DNA of 38,823 nucleotides, taken from the sequence record NC_047927.1. One strand, given 5' to 3'. Below the pieces are notes generated by a model, which saw nothing but the letters and a program-made list of their open reading frames with translations, had not been told where the DNA came from and ran no database searches. Below, one piece after another: positions 1 through 38,661 of this stretch. Both the position numbers and the translations under genes were made by a program. Every line of letters begins with the position of its first letter. Position 1 is the first letter of the stretch. This DNA comes from Escherichia phage YZ1.

Positions 1-217
1 TCTCACAGTTCAAGAACCTCAAGTCTCCCCATAGGCCCTCTTTAAGTCCAGACCAAAGGCCCTACCCCAGTCTATCATAAGGCTGGACCGATGGTCAAGA
101 CGTTAGGTCAACGATAGGTCTAGGCTATGGCTGGAGGTCAGGACGATAGGTAGGGACTATGGGTCTGCCTCTGAGTCCCTATCTGTATAGTGATATAGTA
201 TAACCATAGGTCCTACA

Positions 218-302
218 ACCTACAGTCTAACTAACCTACAGTCTAACTAACCTACAGTATCAACCATAAGACACTCACACCCTACAGTCAAAGACCTACA
301 GT
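218..302. repeat. Left-end array of five CCTACAGT octamers (first two copies inside a tandem 16-bp unit ACCTACAGTCTAACTA)
   Basis: Direct reading: CCTACAGT at 219, 235, 251, 281 and 295. Analogous in position to the short repeat arrays next to the T7 terminal repeat. Confidence 0.8.
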
Positions 303-556
303 TAATAGACACAAAGCTATAGACTTAAGGTCAAGGACATGTTAGTCAAAGACTATATCCTATTACTCACCATGGGGCCGACGATAGCTTCATCAATATT
401 ATTTAAGATTACCTATCGACTACAGGTCCAGACTATGGCTTCATCGCTTCCGTCAACACGACACGGCAACAACCGGATAGTGAAGACGCCGGGTCATCCC
501 GGTTCAGTAGACAGCCTGATAAGTCATACGAACAACAGGCAGATGACAGAAAGTAG

Positions 557-593
557 TTGACAAGATGTACCGACTTAAAGTAGTATGTACCAC
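557..593 (+). promoter_or_regulatory. Host sigma70-type early promoter (T7 A3-like): -35 TTGACA, 18-nt spacer, -10 TAGTAT
   Basis: TTGACA at 557-562 and TAGTAT at 581-586; the flanking sequence (GTAGACAGCCTGATAAGTC upstream, GTACCACAT downstream, GCTCTTTAACAATCTGG further on) resembles the T7 early promoter region as I remember it. Confidence 0.6.
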
Positions 594-716
594 ATCAACA
601 CGAAACAACGGTGACGACCAACACTGAAATGGTCTACCTGAAGTCCTCTGACTGAAGGGAATGCTCTTTAACAATCTGGATAAACTCTTAATGTGCGCCG
701 ATAGCGACTAACTACA

Positions 717-746
717 GGGTCTTTGAGTCTACATCTGAAGGCCCTG
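717..746 (+). promoter_or_regulatory. Stem-loop in the early leader (AGGGTC ... GGCCCT), possible RNase III site analogous to T7 R0.3
   Basis: 6-bp stem with one G-U pair immediately upstream of the first early gene; layout resembles the T7 R0.3 region. Confidence 0.3.
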
Positions 747-777
747 ACTGATAGTCACTAACTAAAGGATAAACAAG

Positions 778-1302
778 ATGAAACTGATAGGCAAAGGCAC
801 GTTCACTAAGTGCTACCTGAAGGACTGCGGGAAGCGTGTAATTCTGGTCTCTTCAGACCCAATCAAGGAGTGTATGGCGTGGGGATGGTTCCCTGAGTCT
901 CCACTGTTCCCTGAAGTCAAGATGATTGAGGTGGGCACGTATGAGATGGACTACATGCCACCAACACGAGGACTCAAGGCGCATTTAGATGACGACCAGT
1001 GGCAACTCTATCAGGTGCTGCGAGATTGCTTCTCACGGTCTCCGGTATTCTCTCGACCTGCTGACCTGTATCACAAGTGGTACGAGATATTCCAAGCTGC
1101 ACACGACAGGTCTGAGACCGAGACTGTGCGGGAAGGTCTGATGGATGTACTGATGGCGCTGGACGCTTGCGCTAACTTCGGGTCTGACATTCAGTTTGAG
1201 ATAAGCCCACGAAATGTACGGGCTGTGAACGGCAAGCTGATACTAGTGGATTGTTTCTTCCTTGTGTCCAAGCTGCAAGAGGTGAGGGCGTCAAGATGGT
1301 AA
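778..1302 (+). CDS. gp0.7-like protein kinase-domain protein (174 aa, minimal, lacks the T7 C-terminal host shut-off domain)
   Basis: Glycine-rich loop LIGKGTFTKCY near the N-terminus and a C-terminal segment EISPRNVRAVNGKLILVDCFF that aligns with the catalytic/activation segment of T7 gp0.7 ([23 protein letters not shown], from memory). First gene after the early promoter. Confidence 0.5.
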   Translation: MKLIGKGTFTKCYLKDCGKRVILVSSDPIKECMAWGWFPESPLFPEVKMIEVGTYEMDYMPPTRGLKAHLDDDQWQLYQVLRDCFSRSPVFSRPADLYHKWYEIFQAAHDRSETETVREGLMDVLMALDACANFGSDIQFEISPRNVRAVNGKLILVDCFFLVSKLQEVRASRW

Positions 1303-1445
1303 CTTATGGTCTCTGCCAGCACCACGTCACCAACGCCCGGCTTATGGTCAAGACCGGGCAGTTAAACCACGATGCGACTATGCGCCACCTGAAAGCGGTC
1401 TACGAGGGCCGCAAGCGCATACACGACAGTTTGCACGCTAAGTGA
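1296..1445 (+). CDS. Hypothetical 49-aa protein, start overlapping the kinase stop (alternatively a frameshifted continuation of the kinase gene)
   Basis: ATG at 1296 overlaps the stop of the 778..1302 ORF; GGTGAGGG upstream; open frame to 1445. Confidence 0.25.
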   Translation: MVTYGLCQHHVTNARLMVKTGQLNHDATMRHLKAVYEGRKRIHDSLHAK

Positions 1446-1512
1446 TAAACGAGAGGTCATCTAACTGATAGGTGGCCTCAAAGATTACCACTTAAATTGA
1501 TAGGGGTTAACT

Positions 1513-1617
1513 ATGAGCACTGCAATCATCTGGACTATCTCAGGCTTCGTAGCGTGGGGAATGTTTACTCTAGTCTGCAAACTACCGGTCCTTACTCAAC
1601 TGTTATGGGGCTTATGA
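1513..1617 (+). CDS. Hypothetical 34-aa hydrophobic protein (MSTAIIWTISGFVAWGMFTLVCKLPVLTQLLWGL)
   Basis: ATG at 1513 preceded by AGGGG; single predicted transmembrane helix; its TGA stop overlaps the next ATG (ATGA coupling). Below the ORF-track size cutoff. Confidence 0.3.
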   Translation: MSTAIIWTISGFVAWGMFTLVCKLPVLTQLLWGL

Positions 1618-1817
1618 CTATGAGTCTTGCACTATTGATAGCCATAGGCTATGGACTTATCGCCTACGTGCTGGTGAGAGACACCAACAAGGCACGTAAA
1701 GTCTACAAATTCAACTACGTACGTCTGGGCCGCTGGACTGTACGCCAACCTAACGGACGATTCATGCGCAATTTAGCGAACGTCTGTGATATAGCAACTC
1801 TTGGGAGCAAACTGTAA
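1614..1817 (+). CDS. Hypothetical 67-aa membrane protein (N-terminal TM helix, basic C-terminus)
   Basis: In-frame part of ORF 1497..1817; ATG at 1614 overlaps the upstream stop; hydrophobic segment SLALLIAIGYGLIAYVLV. Confidence 0.35.
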   Translation: MTMSLALLIAIGYGLIAYVLVRDTNKARKVYKFNYVRLGRWTVRQPNGRFMRNLANVCDIATLGSKL

Positions 1818-2080
1818 TGAAAACCACCGTATACACTCATAAAACATCAAGCCGTAGACGCATGGAGCAAGTCCAGCGTGATGAGTTCTTACACCGTCGA
1901 ATGATGGCAGAGGGCCATAAGTCCGAACTGAAGTGTCTGGCGTATGGTGGACGACCAATCACCGACGATGGTAAACTTCTGGTATCAGGCTGGAAGGCGA
2001 TAGACCAAAGGTCAACCATCAAGCACACGACTCATGGTGACTTCAGTCATCTTCACGCTAACCCTCTGATATGCAAGTAA
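1817..2080 (+). CDS. Hypothetical early protein (87 aa)
   Basis: ORF with TAATG stop-start overlap with the preceding ORF; no recognisable motif. Confidence 0.45.
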   Translation: MKTTVYTHKTSSRRRMEQVQRDEFLHRRMMAEGHKSELKCLAYGGRPITDDGKLLVSGWKAIDQRSTIKHTTHGDFSHLHANPLICK

Positions 2081-2085
2081 TTCTG

Positions 2086-2108
2086 ACTTAACTATCACTA
2101 TAGGACTC
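2086..2108 (+). promoter_or_regulatory. Phage RNAP promoter upstream of the RNA polymerase gene
   Basis: TTAACTATCACTATAGGACTCA; matches the window consensus TAAACTATCACTATAGG with predicted +1 G at 2103. Confidence 0.7.
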
Positions 2109-2177
2109 AAGGTCTAAGACTCCAAGTGAAAGACCAAAGAGACTTTAAGTGAAAGACTAATAACAAGGACTTTAAGT

Positions 2178-5163: not shown

Positions 5164-5186
5164 CCTAAACTATCACTATAGGATTA
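5164..5186 (+). promoter_or_regulatory. Phage RNAP promoter (T7 phi1.1-like position)
   Basis: CTAAACTATCACTATAGGATTAG, predicted +1 G at 5181. Confidence 0.75.
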
Positions 5187-5226
5187 GACTCAAGGTCATG
5201 ACCCAAAGTCGTGGCCTTCATGATTA
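5185..5226 (+). promoter_or_regulatory. Conserved hairpin copy 1 (putative RNase III site, T7 R1.1 position)
   Basis: TAGACTCAAGGTCAT-loop-GTGGCCTTCATGATTA; AAGGUCAU pairs with GUGGCCUU including G-U pairs. Same motif recurs at 12045 and 35468. Confidence 0.6.
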
Positions 5227-5263
5227 ACCCTAACCTAGCGTAAACTACTGGAGATTTAACAAC

Positions 5264-5446: not shown

Positions 5447-5698
5447 ATGAGCAGACGTTGGGTATTCGATGCGTCCACCAGCCAGTGGTCATCGTTAGGC
5501 CGGACACACCGCGAGATGAGAGAGGCAGGACTTGAGGTCAGAATGGATGTCCTGCCGTGCTCCGGAAAGACTCTGGTCAGAGTAATTGAAGCAGATGGTG
5601 GGAGGCTTCTGGTCTCCAGAGAATTTACCGAAGATGAAATCTTTAGCTGTGAGCAATGGTGCTTACAACAATTGAACGCTTATAGGAGCTGGAAATAA
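5447..5698 (+). CDS. gp1.2-like protein (83 aa; T7 gp1.2 is a dGTPase inhibitor)
   Basis: Position between gene 1.1 and ligase; C-terminal ...YRSWK resembles the T7 gp1.2 C-terminus ...LKDWK. Assignment is mainly by synteny. Confidence 0.5.
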   Translation: MSRRWVFDASTSQWSSLGRTHREMREAGLEVRMDVLPCSGKTLVRVIEADGGRLLVSREFTEDEIFSCEQWCLQQLNAYRSWK

Positions 5699-6771
5699 TG
5701 ACTACGACTATTAAAACTAACCCGCACCGCGCTGTAGATTACTCTGAGTCTGGCGTTAAGAAGGCACTGGATGCTGCCGGGTCTCTCGAAGCTGAAGTGA
5801 AGTACGACGGTGTTCGGTTGAATCTTCCGGTCTTCCCTACTGGTGAGACTCAATGGTTGAGCCGTGAGTCTAAACCTCTCCCAGCCCTTGAGTGGCTGTC
5901 AGTCCTTACCAACATCGACAACATCGTCGGGGACCAGCAAAAAGCTAGCGACTGGCGGTGGTTCCTGAAGCAGGCTGGCTACGAAGGCACTGGTCTGATG
6001 ATTGACGGTGAGGTCATGGTAAAAGGAGTGGACTTCAATACGTCTTCAGGTCTCATCCGAACGAAGTGGGTAAAGCAAAAGAACTTTGAGTTTTCAACTG
6101 GTGAGCACTGGGGTAAGGACCGGACGAAAGAGAAGCTACCATTCTGTCTGGACCAGAGGTTCATCAAGGTGGTCGTCTACGGTATAGTGGACCTTAACGT
6201 CATCCTTGACCCGAAATCCGAAGGTCCTATTCATAGCGTCACACGCCTGAAGGCCGAAGCTATAGTCCCTCTCCTCCAGAAATACTTCCCTGAAATCGAC
6301 TGGGTTCTGTCTGAGTCACACACGGTCTATGACCTTGAGTCGCTCAACTCCCTGTACGAAGAGAAGCGGCTGGAAGGACATGAGGGTCTGGTAGTCAAGG
6401 ACCCGCTGGGTAAGTGGAAGCGTGGTAAGAAGTCAGGCATGTGGAAAATGAAGCCTGAGGATACCATTGATGGGACTGTGTGTGGACTCGTGTGGGGGAC
6501 TCCGGGTAAGGCTAACGAAGGTAAGATCATCGGCTTTGAGGTCCTACTGGAAGATGGCATGGTGGTTAACGCCTGCGGCCTGACTGAAGCTCAGAAGGAC
6601 GAGTTCACGGAAGCCTGTAACACTGACACATATATCCTTGGTGGTGTCAATCCTTACGAGGGCTGGCAGTGCGAAGTATCCTACATGGAGCGATTCCCTG
6701 ACGGCTCACTGCGTCACCCTAGCTTCAAGTGCTGGCGCGGGACGGAAGATAACCCGACCATTAAGAGCTAA
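5698..6771 (+). CDS. ATP-dependent DNA ligase (T7 gene 1.3 homolog, 357 aa)
   Basis: N-terminus IKTNP..AV closely matches T7 ligase; KYDGVR adenylation motif (motif I lysine). Confidence 0.93.
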   Translation: MTTTIKTNPHRAVDYSESGVKKALDAAGSLEAEVKYDGVRLNLPVFPTGETQWLSRESKPLPALEWLSVLTNIDNIVGDQQKASDWRWFLKQAGYEGTGLMIDGEVMVKGVDFNTSSGLIRTKWVKQKNFEFSTGEHWGKDRTKEKLPFCLDQRFIKVVVYGIVDLNVILDPKSEGPIHSVTRLKAEAIVPLLQKYFPEIDWVLSESHTVYDLESLNSLYEEKRLEGHEGLVVKDPLGKWKRGKKSGMWKMKPEDTIDGTVCGLVWGTPGKANEGKIIGFEVLLEDGMVVNACGLTEAQKDEFTEACNTDTYILGGVNPYEGWQCEVSYMERFPDGSLRHPSFKCWRGTEDNPTIKS

Positions 6772-6780
6772 CTAAATGTC

Positions 6781-6820
6781 AACCCAGTGGTCTCATGACT
6801 GCTGGGTTTCTTTGCTTTGT
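6781..6820 (+). terminator. Putative intrinsic terminator after the ligase gene (T7 TE position)
   Basis: 7-bp stem AACCCAG/CTGGGTT with a 15-nt loop, followed by TCTTTGCTTTGT. Confidence 0.4.
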
Positions 6821-9840: not shown

Positions 9841-10056
9841 ATGATTAAACTTATTGAATTTCTTGGTCGTCTGGTGGTGCGTGGTTATCGTCGTGCTGCG
9901 GTACTGGAACGAAAGGTAGAAAAGAAGACTGCTGACAGTGCGGCTGATGCTGCTGCTCTGGCTGACAAGCTGACCATCGCGTCACTGGAAGCTGGCATGA
10001 AGGCACGTCAAGCTGACACCAAAGCTGACCAGTTGGCTCAGTTCTTCAAAGCCTAA
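9841..10056 (+). CDS. Hypothetical protein (71 aa, Ala-rich, predicted coiled coil)
   Basis: ORF with AAGGAGAA SD 8 nt upstream. Confidence 0.5.
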   Translation: MIKLIEFLGRLVVRGYRRAAVLERKVEKKTADSAADAAALADKLTIASLEAGMKARQADTKADQLAQFFKA

Positions 10057-10075
10057 ACTATCACCTTAGGGATGG
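10053..10075 (+). promoter_or_regulatory. Phage RNAP promoter-like sequence (degenerate, CACCTTAGG) upstream of the primase-helicase gene
   Basis: GCCTAAACTATCACCTTAGGGATG; two core mismatches at -4/-3, so probably weak. Confidence 0.4.
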
Positions 10076-10121
10076 GACCATTAGTCCTGTCCCTTTGTTC
10101 GCATTTGTGACTAAGGAGTGA

Positions 10122-11876: not shown

Positions 11877-12041
11877 GTGTTTAAGAAACTTAAAGCTCGC
11901 TACCATCGGTTCATGTACAAATGGTGGAGTGATGAAGCAACCTGCCTGTCCAACATTCTGGGAGACCAGAGGTTCGACTCTAAGGCATGGAAGAAAGCTA
12001 ACCGGAAGTTTATGTATCACTTCTTGCGTACAGACTTCTAG
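11877..12041 (+). CDS. Hypothetical small basic protein (about 54 aa, GTG start)
   Basis: GGAGGA 9 nt upstream of GTG at 11877 (the track ORF begins at 11841); T7 gene 4.x region. Confidence 0.3.
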   Translation: MFKKLKARYHRFMYKWWSDEATCLSNILGDQRFDSKAWKKANRKFMYHFLRTDF

Positions 12042-12044
12042 GTC

Positions 12045-12084
12045 TAGACTCAAGGTCATTCACATCGAGTGGCCTTTATGATTA
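12045..12084 (+). promoter_or_regulatory. Conserved hairpin copy 2 (putative RNase III site, T7 R4.7 position)
   Basis: TAGACTCAAGGTCAT-loop-GTGGCCTTTATGATTA immediately upstream of the DNA polymerase gene. Confidence 0.6.
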
Positions 12085-12104
12085 GACTAAACGGAGGATT
12101 AACC

Positions 12105-14276
12105 ATGTTTGACCTTAAGAGTATCTGGGGTTCTGACATAGAGACCAACGGTCTCCTTGATACAGTCTCCCAGTTTCACTGTGGGGTCCTGATTAACGCC
12201 GAGTCGAATGAGACCCTTAAGTATGGGGTAGCTCCGATGGTCGGTATCGTCGGTGGCTTCAAAGAGTATGTACAGAAGGTGGAAGAGATTGCCGCATCAC
12301 CTGATGGTATGCTGGTATTCCACAACGGTATCAACTATGACGTCCCGTCTATTGACAAGCTGAAGCGTCTGTACTGTGGGAAACGCTTTAACTTCCCGAA
12401 ACACAAGATGATTGATACCTTGGTGCTGGGACGCTTGATGTATCCAAACATTAAGTTCTCAGACATGGGCGCAGTGAAAGCTGGTCGTCTGCCACCTAAG
12501 ATGATGGGACGCCAGTCTCTTGAGGCTTGGGGCTATCGTCTCGGTGAGATGAAAGGTGAGTACAAACACGATTACGTTGCCAAGTGCAAGGCTGAAGGTA
12601 TCGAATATAAGGCTGGGGACGAATGGTTGTTCCCATCTCAGGAGATGCTAGACTATAACGTTCAAGACGTTGTGGTCACACTGGCGTTGTTCAAGAAGTT
12701 CCTGACTGACAAGTATTACTTCCAGTCTGAACAGTTCGCTTTCGACCAGATTTATGCGTTGCGTCTGGAACATGATGCTGCGTGGACCTGTGCGAAGATG
12801 GAACGTAACGGCTATCCGATGAACACCGAGATGGTCGAAGGCTTATATCGTGAACTCACCGTCAAACGTGCAGAGTTGTTGGACAAGCTGCGTTCGACTT
12901 TCGGCAGCTGGTACGCACCAAAGGGAGGCAAGGAGTTCTTCAAGCACCCACGGACAGGCAAGGACCTTCCGAAGTATCCGCGAGTCGTGTATCCTAAGGT
13001 CGGGTCAGTATTCAAGAAGCCGAAGAACAAAGCTCAACGCTTAGGTCTGGAACCTTGCGAGTTCGACTCACGAGACACGATGGAGGGAGCGCCGTTCACA
13101 CCTATCACTTACGTTGAGTTTAATCCGGGAAGCGGAGACCACTTAGCGAAAGTCTTGATGGAGCGTGGTTGGGAGCCTGTGGACTTCACTGACACTGGGA
13201 AACCTGTAGTCGATGACGAGACGTTAGAACACGTTAAGCTACCAGACGCAGAGGCTCAGGCTTGCGTAGAGCTGGTCCGTGAGTATCTGGTAGTCCAGAA
13301 GCGCATAGGTCAGGCGGCTGAAGGTAAGAACGCATGGTTGAAACTTGTAGGTCCAGACGGACGTATGCACGGTTCAATCAACCCATGCGGTGCAGTAACA
13401 GGACGTGCGACTCATAGTTCACCAAACATGGCTCAGGTCCCTGCTAACGGTGCTCCGTATGGTGAGATTTGCCGTGGTGCTTTCGGTGCAGCTTGGAACA
13501 AGACGGATGGTAAGCCAGACCCTTGGATTCAAGTGGGTGTGGATGCTTCAGGTCTTGAGCTTCGTTGTCTGGGGAACCGAGCAGCTCCGTTTGATGGTGG
13601 TGCCTATGCGAAGACTGTGGTCGAAGGTGACATCCACTGGGCCAACGCAGTAAACGCTGGTTTAGCACCTAACGTCCCACGCGATAAATCGAACCACGAC
13701 CATGATGCTTTCCGTAACAACGCTAAGACGTTCATCTATGCGTTCCTGTATGGTGCAGGGGCCGCTAAGATTGGACTGATAGTCGGCGGTGGTAAGAAGG
13801 AAGGTTCAGCTCTCATGAAGAAATTCATTGAGGGTACACCAGCCATCAAGGACCTCAGGGAAGCTGTGAGTAATACGTTAATCTCAGACTCTAAGTGGGT
13901 GGACGGAGAGAACATCGTCAAGTGGAAACGCCGTTGGTTGCGTGGACTTGATGGTCGCCGTATCCACATCCGGTCGCCACACTCAGCACTGAACGCCTTA
14001 CTTCAAGGTGACGGTGCGGTAGTCTGTAAGCACTGGATTGTCGAGACTGAACGTATGCTTGAAGAGGCAGGGTATGTTCACGGCTGGGAGGGAGACTTTG
14101 CGTACATGGCTTGGGTGCATGATGAATTGCAGATTGCGTGTCGTACTCAGGAGATTGCCGAAGAAGTCGTCAAGATTGCGCAACTTGCTATGCGTAAGGT
14201 GGGTGAGTTCTATAACTTTAAATGTGTCCTTGATACGGAGGGTAAGATTGGACCAACGTGGAAAGAATGCCATTGA
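12105..14276 (+). CDS. DNA polymerase, family A (T7 gene 5 homolog, 723 aa from ATG 12105)
   Basis: Exonuclease motif DIETNGL, polymerase motifs NPCGAVTGRATHSSPN, AKTFIYAFLYGAG, YMAWVHDE, C-terminal GPTWKECH; colinear with T7 gp5. Start set at ATG 12105 (SD ACGGAGGA) rather than the track GTG 12069, which lies inside the upstream hairpin. Confidence 0.96.
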   Translation: MFDLKSIWGSDIETNGLLDTVSQFHCGVLINAESNETLKYGVAPMVGIVGGFKEYVQKVEEIAASPDGMLVFHNGINYDVPSIDKLKRLYCGKRFNFPKHKMIDTLVLGRLMYPNIKFSDMGAVKAGRLPPKMMGRQSLEAWGYRLGEMKGEYKHDYVAKCKAEGIEYKAGDEWLFPSQEMLDYNVQDVVVTLALFKKFLTDKYYFQSEQFAFDQIYALRLEHDAAWTCAKMERNGYPMNTEMVEGLYRELTVKRAELLDKLRSTFGSWYAPKGGKEFFKHPRTGKDLPKYPRVVYPKVGSVFKKPKNKAQRLGLEPCEFDSRDTMEGAPFTPITYVEFNPGSGDHLAKVLMERGWEPVDFTDTGKPVVDDETLEHVKLPDAEAQACVELVREYLVVQKRIGQAAEGKNAWLKLVGPDGRMHGSINPCGAVTGRATHSSPNMAQVPANGAPYGEICRGAFGAAWNKTDGKPDPWIQVGVDASGLELRCLGNRAAPFDGGAYAKTVVEGDIHWANAVNAGLAPNVPRDKSNHDHDAFRNNAKTFIYAFLYGAGAAKIGLIVGGGKKEGSALMKKFIEGTPAIKDLREAVSNTLISDSKWVDGENIVKWKRRWLRGLDGRRIHIRSPHSALNALLQGDGAVVCKHWIVETERMLEEAGYVHGWEGDFAYMAWVHDELQIACRTQEIAEEVVKIAQLAMRKVGEFYNFKCVLDTEGKIGPTWKECH

Positions 14277-16575: not shown

Positions 16576-16598
16576 ACTAAACTATCACTATAGGGACT
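16576..16598 (+). promoter_or_regulatory. Phage RNAP promoter (T7 phi6.5 position)
   Basis: CTAAACTATCACTATAGGGACTT, predicted +1 G at 16593. Confidence 0.75.
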
Positions 16599-20398: not shown

Positions 20399-20421
20399 AC
20401 TAAACTATCACTATAGGGAGA
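20399..20421 (+). promoter_or_regulatory. Phage RNAP promoter upstream of the capsid gene (T7 phi10 position, best consensus match)
   Basis: ACTAAACTATCACTATAGGGAGACC, predicted +1 G at 20416. Confidence 0.85.
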
Positions 20422-20523
20422 CCAAGAGACAGACTCAAGGTTCCACTATTACTTCAGTCCATACGGATTGGGCGTACAGCAAGTAATAAACTTTATCTTT
20501 CAATTGAATAGGAGAATTATCAT

Positions 20524-35213: not shown

Positions 35214-35473
35214 CACAAATGGACTTAGAGAAGTTCTTACTGATGCTGGATACGGAGCGTGCTCGCCTCATGTTGCAAGACTTGAGGGATGACACTAAGC
35301 GCTCGCCACAGCTCTACAACGCCATTGAGAAGCTACTTGCTCGTCACAACTTTGTGTTAAGCAAGGTGTCTGTGGACGAGAAGACACTGGCTGATATGGA
35401 GGCCCTGAACGCAGAGTACGATAAGGTGCTTTCAGCGACTGAGGATAATGACACCGGGTATGGTGTTCAATAA
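35210..35473 (+). CDS. Small terminase subunit / DNA maturase A (T7 gene 18 homolog, 87 aa)
   Basis: LLMLDT, RSPQLYNAIEKLLARH conserved with T7 gp18; lies before the large terminase as in T7. Confidence 0.85.
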   Translation: MTQMDLEKFLLMLDTERARLMLQDLRDDTKRSPQLYNAIEKLLARHNFVLSKVSVDEKTLADMEALNAEYDKVLSATEDNDTGYGVQ

Positions 35474-35504
35474 GTGTTAGACTCAAGGTCATCGTCAGGT
35501 GGCC
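35468..35504 (+). promoter_or_regulatory. Conserved hairpin copy 3 (putative RNase III site, T7 R18.5 position)
   Basis: TAGACTCAAGGTCAT-loop-GTGGCCTTTATGATTA directly after gene 18. Confidence 0.6.
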
Positions 35505-35535
35505 TTTATGATTAACACTAACTAGTGGAGGTTAT

Positions 35536-35937
35536 ATGGAAGGCGCATATATAAGTGGAGGATACTGGAAGGTTACTCGCAATGGTAAGGTGCATGGAGT
35601 TCACAGATTACTATGGGAGGAAGCCAACGGTCCTATCCCAGAGGGTTACGTCATAGACCACATTGACAGGAACCCTATGAATAACGAGCTGTCAAACCTT
35701 AGGTGTATACCCAAAGGAGCAAACAAGGCTAACACAGAATCATCTAGGGAACTACCTAAGGGTGTATACTCTAGGCTTGCTAAACGTCAAGGTGTGACTG
35801 TATATTATGGTGACATTAGGATTGGTGGTAAGAAAGAAACTCACGCTCCTACTAAGAATCTGATGGAAGTCGTGGAATGGGCTAAGTCAACTCACAGCAG
35901 AATGCTGAAGGAGACATATGGTATTTCAAATGTTTAA
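35536..35937 (+). CDS. HNH endonuclease (133 aa), likely a free-standing homing endonuclease
   Basis: HNH signature in HRLLWEEANGPIPEGYVIDHIDRNPMNNELSNLRCIP; codon usage rich in AGG/AGA and lower GC than the flanking core genes; no counterpart at this position in T7. Confidence 0.85.
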   Translation: MEGAYISGGYWKVTRNGKVHGVHRLLWEEANGPIPEGYVIDHIDRNPMNNELSNLRCIPKGANKANTESSRELPKGVYSRLAKRQGVTVYYGDIRIGGKKETHAPTKNLMEVVEWAKSTHSRMLKETYGISNV

Positions 35938-36370
35938 GAGAGCGGCTCCGTGGTTACTTGCAGCAGTGATGTTTGCTGGTGGCTACCACACCGCTAACAA
36001 TAAGTGGGAGGCTAAGGTAAATGCAGAATACACCTCGAATCTTAAGGCATCGGAGGATACAAGACTTGCTGTCCAAGCTGAAGTCAACAAAGTGTCCAAA
36101 CGGTTCCAGGACGAAATGTCCTCGTTGGAAGGCAGCACTGATAGGATTATTGCTGACCTTAAGTCTGACAATAAGCGGCTGCTCATCCGAGTCAAACCAA
36201 CGAGTGGAACCACGCAAAGTGACGGTCGATGCGTCATTGATGGTAGAGCCGAACTTGACGAACGAGATGCTAAACGTCTTATCGCCATCGGAGTGAAAGG
36301 AGACAAGTGGATTAAGGCCCTTCAAGACACTGTGAGAGCCTTACAGCAAGAGAAGGAGGTGAAACCTTGA
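35918..36370 (+). CDS. Rz-like i-spanin (T7 gene 18.5 homolog, 150 aa; start may be the second ATG at 35930)
   Basis: N-terminal TM segment, then [18 protein letters not shown] ... [16 protein letters not shown] ... [17 protein letters not shown], colinear with T7 gp18.5. Confidence 0.85.
36021..36296 (+). CDS. Rz1-like o-spanin lipoprotein embedded in the +1 frame of Rz (T7 gene 18.7 homolog, 91 aa)
   Basis: [21 protein letters not shown] with lipobox cysteine, then [18 protein letters not shown], matching T7 gp18.7 as remembered; wholly inside the Rz ORF. Confidence 0.7.
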   Translation: MQNTPRILRHRRIQDLLSKLKSTKCPNGSRTKCPRWKAALIGLLLTLSLTISGCSSESNQRVEPRKVTVDASLMVEPNLTNEMLNVLSPSE

Positions 36371-38130
36371 GTAAAGACTTAGTGGCGCGTCAGGCGCTAA
36401 TGACAGCACGTATGAAGGAAGACTTCGTGTTCTTCCTGTTCGTCCTGTGGAAAGCTCTGTCACTCCCGGTCCCGACTCGCTGTCAGATTGACATGGCGAA
36501 GAAACTATCGGCTGGTGACAACAGGCGTTTCATCCTACAGGCGTTCCGTGGTATCGGGAAGTCCTTCATTACGTGTGCATTCGTGGTCTGGAAACTATGG
36601 AACAACCCAGACCTGAAGTTCATGATTGTGTCGGCCTCAAAGGAACGAGCCGATGCGAACTCCATCTTCATCAAGCGAATCATCGACCTCATGCCTCAGC
36701 TTCAGGAACTCAAACCTAAGCAGGGACAGCGAGATGCGGTTATCAGCTTCGACGTTGGGCCAGCCAAACCAGACCACTCACCCTCGGTTAAGTCCGTTGG
36801 TATCACTGGTCAGTTGACTGGTAGTCGTGCTGACATCCTGATTGCCGATGACGTGGAGGTTCCGAACAACTCAGCGACTCAGTCTGCACGAGACCGTCTG
36901 TCAGAGCTTGTGAAAGAGTTCGACGCTATCCTGAAGCCGGGAGGTACAATCATCTATCTGGGTACTCCTCAGAACGAGATGACCTTGTATCGTGAGCTGG
37001 AAGGCCGTGGATACACCACTACCATCTGGCCTGCTCGTTATCCACGCGACAGGAAGGACTGGCAGTCTTACGGCGACCGTCTGGCACCGATGCTTCAGGC
37101 AGAGCTTGAAGATGACCCTGAGTCCTTCTACTGGCGTCCGACCGATGAAGTACGATTCGATGATACGGACCTGAAGGAACGTGAGCTGTCCTATGGTAAA
37201 GCTGGCTTCTCTCTACAGTTCATGCTTAACCCTAACCTGAGTGATGCTGAGAAGTACCCTCTGAAGCTCCGTGACCTTATCGTAGCCGACTTGGACCCAG
37301 CGTCTAGCCCAATGGTATACCAATGGCTTCCTAACCCTCAGAACAAGCGTGAGGACGTTCCTAACGTTGGACTCATGGGTGACTCATACCACACGTATCA
37401 GACTGTAGGTTCTGCCTTCAGTTCGTACACCCAGAAGATTCTAGTCATTGACCCTAGTGGTCGTGGTAAGGATGAAACTGGTTATGCGGTACTGTACCAG
37501 CTCAACGGCTACATCTTCGCTATGGAAGTTGGCGGTATGCGAGGTGGCTATGAAGACTCTACGCTGGAAGCCTTGGCTAAGATTGGTCGTAAGTGGAAGG
37601 TCAACGAATACGTCATTGAGGGTAACTTCGGTGATGGTATGTACCTTGAGCTATTCAAGCCTGTAGCTTCCCGTATTCATCCTGCTGCTGTAACTGAAGT
37701 GAAGAGTAAGGGTCAGAAGGAACTCCGCATCTGTGACGTTCTGGAGCCTATCATGGGGTCTCACCGACTTATCGTTAACGCTGCTGCTATCGTCCAAGAT
37801 TACCAGTCTGCCTCTGATAAGGATGGTGTTCGTAATCCTATCTACTCTCTCTTCTACCAGATGACACGCATCTCTCGTGAACGTGGAGCATTGGCACACG
37901 ATGACCGACTTGATGCGCTGGCTATCGGTGTACAGTTCTTCGTTGAGTCTATGGCGAAGGATGCCAACAAAGGCGAACGTGAAGTCACTGAGGAGTGGCT
38001 GGAGGAACAGATGGAGAACCCACGGAAAGGCTTCGAGTCCATCCGCACTGAGTTCTGGGACAATGGGGTCCGGGTAACTCACGATACGGACGACGAGCTG
38101 GGGCTAGGGTCCTACGTTACGTTCCACTAG
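36367..38130 (+). CDS. Large terminase subunit / DNA maturase B (T7 gene 19 homolog, 587 aa; apparent TTG start)
   Basis: Colinear near-identity with T7 gp19 ([41 protein letters not shown] Walker [76 protein letters not shown]). TTG at 36367 has AAGGAGG 7 nt upstream; the first ATG is 11 codons in. Confidence 0.95.
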
Positions 38131-38618: not shown

Positions 38619-38661
38619 CTAAGGTCAGTACGTGGATAAAGACTCACTCTACTGACCTTAG
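38619..38661 (+). repeat. Perfect 12-bp inverted repeat (CTAAGGTCAGTA / TACTGACCTTAG) with a 19-nt loop near the right end
   Basis: Direct reading; the arms are exact reverse complements. Confidence 0.7.

Follow-up and report, generated by a model that had tools for sequence, protein, structure and literature searches.

Genome organization and location of the hairpins

The DNA analysed here (hereafter the window) is the whole 38,823-nt sequence of Escherichia phage YZ1 (NC_047927.1), a complete T7-like genome of the genus Kayfunavirus (K1F-like, Studiervirinae), in which all genes are transcribed from the + strand and are ordered as in T7. A 10-kb segment shared ~95% identity with phage IME177 and 92-96% identity with many other Kayfunavirus records. 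The window contains 11 matches to the phage promoter sequence AACTATCACTATAGG, a sigma-70-like early promoter at 557-586 and, as located by a terminator scan, an early terminator at 6781-6808. Since no ORF upstream of gene 1 (window 1-2177) is longer than 174 aa, there is no room for a T7 gp0.7-like kinase.

A preliminary description of this genome had reported three copies of a conserved hairpin motif, at the positions of the T7 RNase III sites R1.1, R4.7 and R18.5. Searching both strands of the window with the exact pattern CTCAAGGTC-N(4-20)-GGCCTTYATGATTA, we found exactly three matches, all on the + strand, at 5189-5226, 12049-12084 and 35482-35514, compared with no match in 100 dinucleotide shuffles. 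With the leading TAGA included, the copies extend over 5185-5226, 12045-12084 and 35478-35514; the first two agree with the coordinates originally given, whereas the third had been placed ~10 nt too low, at 35468-35504. The count of three holds for the tight consensus only, since two divergent copies and one hairpin of the R3.8 type, described below, are also present.

All three copies occupy short gaps between genes, behind a stop codon and ahead of the following Shine-Dalgarno sequence; their gene neighbours were assigned via PHROGs. Copy 1, a predicted RNase III hairpin at the R1.1 position (5179-5232, + strand; identified by its fold, a T7/T3 model and alignment with T7 R1.1), comes after gene 1 and a small ORF, with a phage promoter immediately upstream; next come an ORF at the 1.1 position and a homologue of the gene 1.2 dGTPase inhibitor. 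This promoter (AACTATCACTATAGG, 5168-5182, + strand, with +1 probably at G5181) overlaps the 5' strand of the copy 1 lower stem. Copy 2, a predicted RNase III hairpin at the R4.7 position (12041-12088, + strand; identified by its fold, the T7/T3 model and its neighbouring genes), lies between a small ORF and the DNA polymerase gene (ATG at 12105), starting at the last base of the upstream stop codon and ending 16 nt before the polymerase ATG. Copy 3, a predicted RNase III hairpin at the R18.5 position (35473-35519, + strand; identified by its fold, the T7/T3 model and orthologous loci), starts at the stop codon that ends gene 18 (small terminase). These junctions, after gene 1, before gene 5 and after gene 18, agree with the PHROG assignments and with the maps of T7, T3 and K1F.

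Copy 3 is followed by a free-standing HNH endonuclease ORF (133 aa, 35536-35937), and this in turn by the Rz-like spanin gene (35918-36370). The HNH ORF was absent from the corresponding site in K1F and in 23 of the 23 IMG/VR Kayfunavirus relatives compared, with similarity to the relatives breaking at ~35531 and resuming at ~35926, and it would be the first cistron of the predicted RNase III-processed downstream mRNA. In the relative IMGVR_UViG_3300045988_000029 (L021 1464-1940), an insertion of ~475 bp separates the end of gene 18 from the hairpin at the R18.5 position, indicating that the gene 18/hairpin junction carries an insertion in another lineage too.

Secondary structure of the three copies

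RNA folding, put forward in the preliminary description as a check, showed that all three copies fold on the + strand with similar energies (-19.3 to -19.5 kcal/mol; z = -3.4 to -5.0). From base to tip, the common fold has a lower stem, an internal loop that is asymmetric (5' ACUC / 3' YAUGA), 9-11 bp of upper stem and a terminal loop of 4-5 nt, and the MFE and centroid folds of the copies agree with those of T7 sites folded in parallel. As had been claimed, the arms AAGGUCAU and GUGGCCUU pair with each other, two of the pairs being G·U, and each copy has its own loop (CCAAA, ACAUC and GUCA).

Specifically, in copy 1 (-19.3 kcal/mol, z -3.4) the lower stem is formed by 5179-5182/5229-5232 and 5184-5187/5224-5227 (UAGG-UUAG/UUAA-CCUA), the internal loop by ACUC at 5188-5191 and CAUGA at 5219-5223, and the 11-bp upper stem by 5192-5202/5208-5218, which encloses the loop CCAAA at 5203-5207. 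In copy 2 (-19.4 kcal/mol, z -4.05), the corresponding elements are the lower stem 12041-12047/12082-12088 (GGUCUAG/UUAGACU), the internal loop with ACUC at 12048-12051 and UAUGA at 12077-12081, and the 10-bp upper stem 12052-12061/12067-12076 with the loop ACAUC. Copy 3 (-19.5 kcal/mol, z -5.0) has a lower stem at 35473-35480/35512-35519 (AGUGUUAG/UUAACACU), an internal loop with ACUC at 35481-35484 and UAUGA at 35507-35511, and a 9-bp upper stem at 35485-35493/35498-35506 with the loop GUCA. The lower stems of the three copies thus differ in sequence, but all of them are paired.

Folds of the - strand were weaker, at -10.8 kcal/mol for copy 2 and -10.1 kcal/mol for copy 3 (z about -1), and somewhat weaker for copy 1 (-17.6 kcal/mol). 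Such weakness is expected because the RNA element uses G·U pairs.

Similarity to the RNase III sites of T7 and T3

The motif in the window is nearly identical to that at R0.5, R1.1, R1.3 and R4.7 of T7 (NC_001604). In assigning the T7 occurrences of the box we took them to be these four sites, with close variants presumably at R0.3, R1 and R18.5. Common to the window copies and T7 are the box ACUCAAGGUC...GGCCUUYAUGAUU, the architecture of stem, asymmetric loop and stem, and the strand. The proximal 7 bp of the upper stem in the copies are identical to those of T7 R1.1, the RNA of which is the model substrate of the Nicholson laboratory, and copy 2 shares its entire upper-stem sequence with T7 R1.1, whereas the loops, the distal stems and the lower stems differ between the window and T7. 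The three strong copies are closer to each other and to T7 R0.5 than to their positional T7 counterparts.

The T3 record (NC_003298) annotates ten stem-loops as 'RNase III recognition site', seven of which (R0.3, R0.5, R1, R1.1, R1.3, R4.7 and R18.5) have the same motif and fold as the window copies. For example, T3 R0.5 (GUGUUAAACUCAAGGUCAU...GUGGCCUUUAUGAUUAACA) is almost identical to copy 3, and T3 R4.7 (12970-13018) is located immediately upstream of gene 5, exactly like copy 2, although T3 belongs to another genus (Teetrevirus) and has promoters different from those in the window.

We built a covariance model, R1, from 14 sites of T7 (seven) and T3 (seven) only and searched the window with filters off. 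In the training alignment, 92% of the cells pair and 9 of the 16 pairs show double changes, with 30-49% pairing for a slid partner, so that pairing in the training set is well above the shuffled and slid controls. The three best matches in the window were copy 3 (35466-35529, 61.9 bits, E 4e-11), copy 2 (12033-12098, 49.0 bits, E 3e-8) and copy 1 (5173-5238, 41.5 bits, E 1e-6), compared with at most 13.7 bits for the best non-site. The same model recovered R6.5 of both T7 and T3, which are outside its training set. However, equivalents of R1, R1.3, R6.5 and R13 were not found in the window by this search with E values up to 10, and the folds around the promoters at 16580 and 24743 were unremarkable. 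A scan of the whole window at Rfam gathering thresholds gave no matches, a result uninformative on function either way. By these comparisons, the three copies are homologues, in sequence and in structure, of the T7/T3 RNase III sites and lie at the same genome positions.

Conservation and covariation in related phages

An orthologue of the R18.5-position hairpin was present after gene 18 in all 23 of the 23 Kayfunavirus loci, and a site before gene 5 in 22 of the 23 close-relative loci. In more distant relatives (~52-56% gp18 identity), the model, run with default filters, gave no match behind gene 18. Of 80 T7-group loci, nearly all contained at least one site downstream of the RNA polymerase gene, giving 93 matches, all on the + strand and representing 72 distinct sequences; the C-terminus of the RNA polymerase served as the anchor for these relatives, since a gene 1.2 anchor yielded only 5 loci. 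In addition, a 49-nt query spanning copy 3 matched 602 phage records, from phages of Klebsiella, Escherichia, Yersinia, Enterobacter, Salmonella and other hosts, and almost none of the 60 records listed among the 602 carried an annotation at the match.

Variation within Kayfunavirus alone is too small for a test of covariation. In the lower stem, compensatory double changes were seen at seven of nine pairs across the 93 matches from behind the RNA polymerase gene, with a covariation score of 0.25 compared with 0.13 for shuffled and at most 0.08 for slid alignments. The seven core pairs of the upper stem were essentially invariant, with the U·G pair present in 71 of the 72 distinct sequences. 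Sequence and length (10-20 nt) vary freely in the distal upper stem and the loop. The distal stem occurs in ~50 distinct variants (49 once 10 regex mis-parses in the A4 set are removed), which lengthen the nested hairpin by 3-8 bp; in one of them, only the outermost pair stays open.

K1F (NC_007456), the type phage of Kayfunavirus, has model matches at 5561-5626, 12848-12914 and 36441-36509, positions orthologous to the sites in the window. Its early region contains three further matches (702-775, 1025-1089 and 1761-1828), of which that at 1025-1089 is an extra site absent from the window. The K1F record has no RNase III annotation.

Additional predicted sites in the window

Two divergent early sites, missing from the preliminary description, were found by the model in the region transcribed by the host polymerase, and both have the same architecture as copies 1 to 3. 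The first, at the R0.3 position (702-760, + strand, core CUACAGGGUC...GGCCCUGACUGAU), is located just before an early gene of 174 aa at 778-1302. It was matched by model R1 at 696-769 (30.4 bits, E 3e-4), has a fold of -22.9 kcal/mol (z -2.9) and is 97% conserved in K1F, where a change from U·G to C-G keeps the pair. The second, at an R0.5-like position (1439-1494, + strand, core ACGAGAGGUCAUC...GGUGGCCUCAAAGAUUA), was matched at 1434-1502 (30.9 bits, E 2.5e-4), has a fold of -22.2 kcal/mol (z -4.8) and is conserved in K1F with pair-preserving changes. Just after this second hairpin there is a 34-codon ORF (1513-1617) for a hydrophobic peptide (MSTAIIWTISGFVAWGMFTLVCKLPVLTQLLWGL), with its ATG behind a G-rich stretch; it is in another frame than the listed ORF 1497-1817, the PHROG match of which spans only residues 37-105.

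A hairpin of another class, without the AAGGUC box and likewise missing from the preliminary description, was identified at 10068-10096 (+ strand) by its fold and by alignment with T7, T3 and K1F. This R3.8-type hairpin has an 11-bp stem (AGGGAUGGGAC/GUCCUGUCCCU) and lies right after the promoter at 10056-10070, before the primase/helicase gene, that is, in the initially transcribed region of the pre-gene 4 promoter, and is followed by CCCUUUGUUCGCAUU. Its 3' flank, CCCTTTGTTCGCATT, is identical to that of T7 R3.8, whereas the stem differs from T7 R3.8 and from the annotated T3 R3.8 by compensatory changes. By homology with these sites, a cut is predicted after U10096.

Near the right end of the genome, after a gene 19.5-like ORF, we observed a perfect 12-bp hairpin (CTAAGGTCAGTA / TACTGACCTTAG) with a 19-nt loop at 38619-38661 (-26.3 kcal/mol, z -3.2). 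The loop contains, by eye, AAGACTCACTCTAC, which resembles a T7-type promoter core and is unlike the promoters of this phage. This hairpin may represent another processing hairpin or a relic.

Half-motifs and enrichment of short words

The preliminary description also mentioned shorter elements resembling the 5' arm behind two promoters. Such strings do exist, at 2103-2113 and 20431-20441, but they lack a 3' arm, a significant fold and a match to the model, so they do not qualify as related sites. The element at 2103-2113 (GGACTCAAGGT) overlaps the last bases of the promoter at 2090-2104, and that at 20431-20441 lies 14 nt after the promoter at 20403-20417; neither fold is significant (z = -0.3 and -1.8, respectively). 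As an RNase III site, 2103-2113 was rejected because it has no significant fold and no model match; its surroundings are 99% identical in K1F, which makes covariation uninformative. The element at 20431-20441 was rejected as well, since K1F has CAATGTT instead and the element is not conserved; its segment CAAGGUUCC pairs with the upstream GGGAGACC of the gene-10 leader, at the position of the T7 phi10 5' stem-loop.

A direct repeat, AGACTYYAAGTGAAAGAC, can be seen twice by eye at 2117-2160, in the RNA polymerase gene leader that follows the promoter at 2090-2104; this whole leader is 99% identical in K1F.

The 11-mer AGACTCAAGGT alone gave 17 matches, compared with ~1 expected from shuffles. 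We rejected this enrichment, however, as evidence for extra sites. The excess can be traced to the short word CTCAAGG, common in coding DNA on both strands, for which a maximal-order Markov model expects 18.7 occurrences compared with 25 observed (13 on the + strand and 12 on the - strand). Most of these fall in a single frame on each strand (frame-0 CTC AAG on + and CTT GAG on -), which we read as an effect of codon usage; the shuffle statistic for the 11-mer therefore overstates its significance.

Proposed processing by RNase III

The three hairpins are very probably signals for processing of polycistronic mRNAs by host RNase III, orthologous to R1.1, R4.7 and R18.5 of T7 and T3. We observed homology of sequence and structure, synteny, strand specificity, covariation and conservation. 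Cleavage, the exact position of the cuts and their stabilising effect we infer from T7 biochemistry, by analogy with which the + strand transcript would fold into a quasi-continuous helix of ~20 bp, and E. coli RNase III would bind this helix via the conserved AAGG/CCUU box beside the loop and via base pairs close to its upper end. The internal loop would limit cutting to one strand, on the 3' side, within CCUUYAU^GAUUA; by homology, single cuts are predicted at U5221/G5222, U12079/G12080 and U35509/G35510. The upstream mRNA would be left with a stable 3' hairpin, the upper stem, just behind its stop codon, which would protect it from 3' exonucleases, and the downstream mRNAs would start 42, 25 and 26 nt before their start codons (copies 1, 2 and 3, respectively). 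In T7, Dunn and Studier reportedly placed RNase III cuts in 1983 at 5887, 13892 and 36856, all of which fall at CCUUYAU^G.

Published data on the T7 sites are in line with such a mechanism. The T7 early precursor contains five processing signals (PMC3867540), R0.5 and R1.1 are efficient RNase III sites in vivo (PMC3643576), and R3.8, R4.7, R6.5 and R18.5 are strong sites (bioRxiv 10.1101/106799). Internal loops limit RNase III to a single phosphodiester, leaving 3' hairpins that protect against 3'-5' exonucleases (PMC1540722). As measured on a minimal substrate, ~11 bp are needed between the cut and the terminal loop, and a 1-bp deletion in that substrate lowered reactivity 50-fold (PMC1540722). 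The upper stem of copy 3 has 9 bp and a tetraloop and is 1 bp shorter than that of T7 R1.1, a point against its processing, but the same 9-bp geometry is found in T7 R0.3 and T3 R4.7. Our literature search returned no RNase III experimental data on this phage or on any Kayfunavirus and no paper pairing 'RNase III' with 'Kayfunavirus'.

The element is a textbook RNase III site of the T7 group, present here as unannotated orthologues, and the finding leaves the understanding of its mechanism unchanged. RNase III processing influences how stable T7-group mRNAs are and how they are translated, and sites of this kind serve as insulator parts in synthetic biology. The practical value lies in annotation, with six predicted processing sites and cut predictions at the nucleotide level.

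Alternative explanations

A core of ~30 nt, comprising ACUC, AAGGUC with its fixed U·G wobble, GGCCUU and YAUGAUUA, is conserved as sequence at 3-7 positions per genome in >600 phage records of several genera. E. coli RNase III, whose sequence preferences are loose, would not seem to need conservation anywhere near as tight, and the box might therefore carry a second constraint, for example a second RNA-binding partner from phage or host, or the sites might be recombination-homogenised junction 'linkers' for module exchange and for the landing of mobile HNH genes such as that beside copy 3. We consider this improbable.

It is very unlikely that the hairpins act only in RNA stability or translation, or that they bind RNase III without being cleaved, for example as stem-loops protecting 3' ends made by termination or by some other processing, or as 'uncoupled' sites. 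Stable hairpins directly behind stop codons would suit such roles, and R1.1 variants that are competent in binding but resistant to cleavage are known (PMC1540722). However, the internal loop and its flanking pairs are identical to those of cleaved T7 sites, making a non-cleaved stabiliser unlikely, and the copies bear no resemblance to the bulge-helix-bulge uncoupling motif. In addition, a 3' end at the hairpin would require either cleavage or termination, and none of the copies is followed by a T-run terminator.

Still less probable is an element acting at the DNA level, such as a binding site for a phage or host protein, part of a replication origin or a recombination-promoting 'linker' between gene modules. 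The copies are found on the transcribed strand only, and their pairing relies on G·U pairs, whose complements are A·C mismatches and which would be meaningless in duplex DNA; one such U·G pair is retained in 71 of the 72 sequences, and for copies 2 and 3 the - strand gives a far weaker fold. The lower and distal stems have also changed in a compensatory manner that keeps the pairing in RNA. Conservation of the core box as sequence, beyond pairing, in >600 phage records would be compatible with a role in DNA, as would the location of the primary origin, which in T7 and T3 adjoins R1.1 and in T3 is annotated at 5682-5758, ~250 bp upstream of R1.1. The mobile HNH gene inserted ~20 nt downstream of copy 3 might suggest a linker, but its breakpoint at ~35531 is away from the hairpin edge.

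Least probable of all is a role in pausing or terminating the phage or host RNA polymerase: although the hairpins are intergenic, G+C-rich and on the transcribed strand, they are followed by AUGAUUA with no U-run after any copy, the scan found only the early terminator at 6781-6808 and one other site, none of these hairpins, and transcription must read through copy 2, since there is no promoter between it and the essential DNA polymerase gene.

Comparison with known RNase III substrates

As predicted RNase III processing sites, the hairpins share their gene junctions with T7 for R1.1, behind a phage promoter after gene 1, and for R18.5, after gene 18, and the overlap of the promoter at 5168-5182 with copy 1 is the arrangement of phi1.1A/R1.1 in T7 and phi1.1/R1.1 in T3. 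T7 R4.7 precedes gene 4.7, whereas copy 2 directly precedes gene 5. The window has five sites of the R1.1 class, compared with seven in T7, and lacks the canonical R1 and R1.3; T3 has both of these plus R6.5 and R13, all absent from the window. T7 also has a gene for the gp0.7 kinase, whereas the window has none; this type of protein kinase stimulates RNase III during T7 infection (work cited among the references of PMC3867540), and its absence is a point against RNase III processing in this phage.

The same enzyme acts on the E. coli rRNA precursor and on other fully double-stranded substrates, for which about two helical turns of double-stranded RNA are needed (PMC1540722, PMC3867540). In such substrates both strands are cut with a 2-nt stagger, whereas an internal loop of the T7 type, as predicted for the three copies described here, restricts cutting to one strand and leaves a 3' hairpin.
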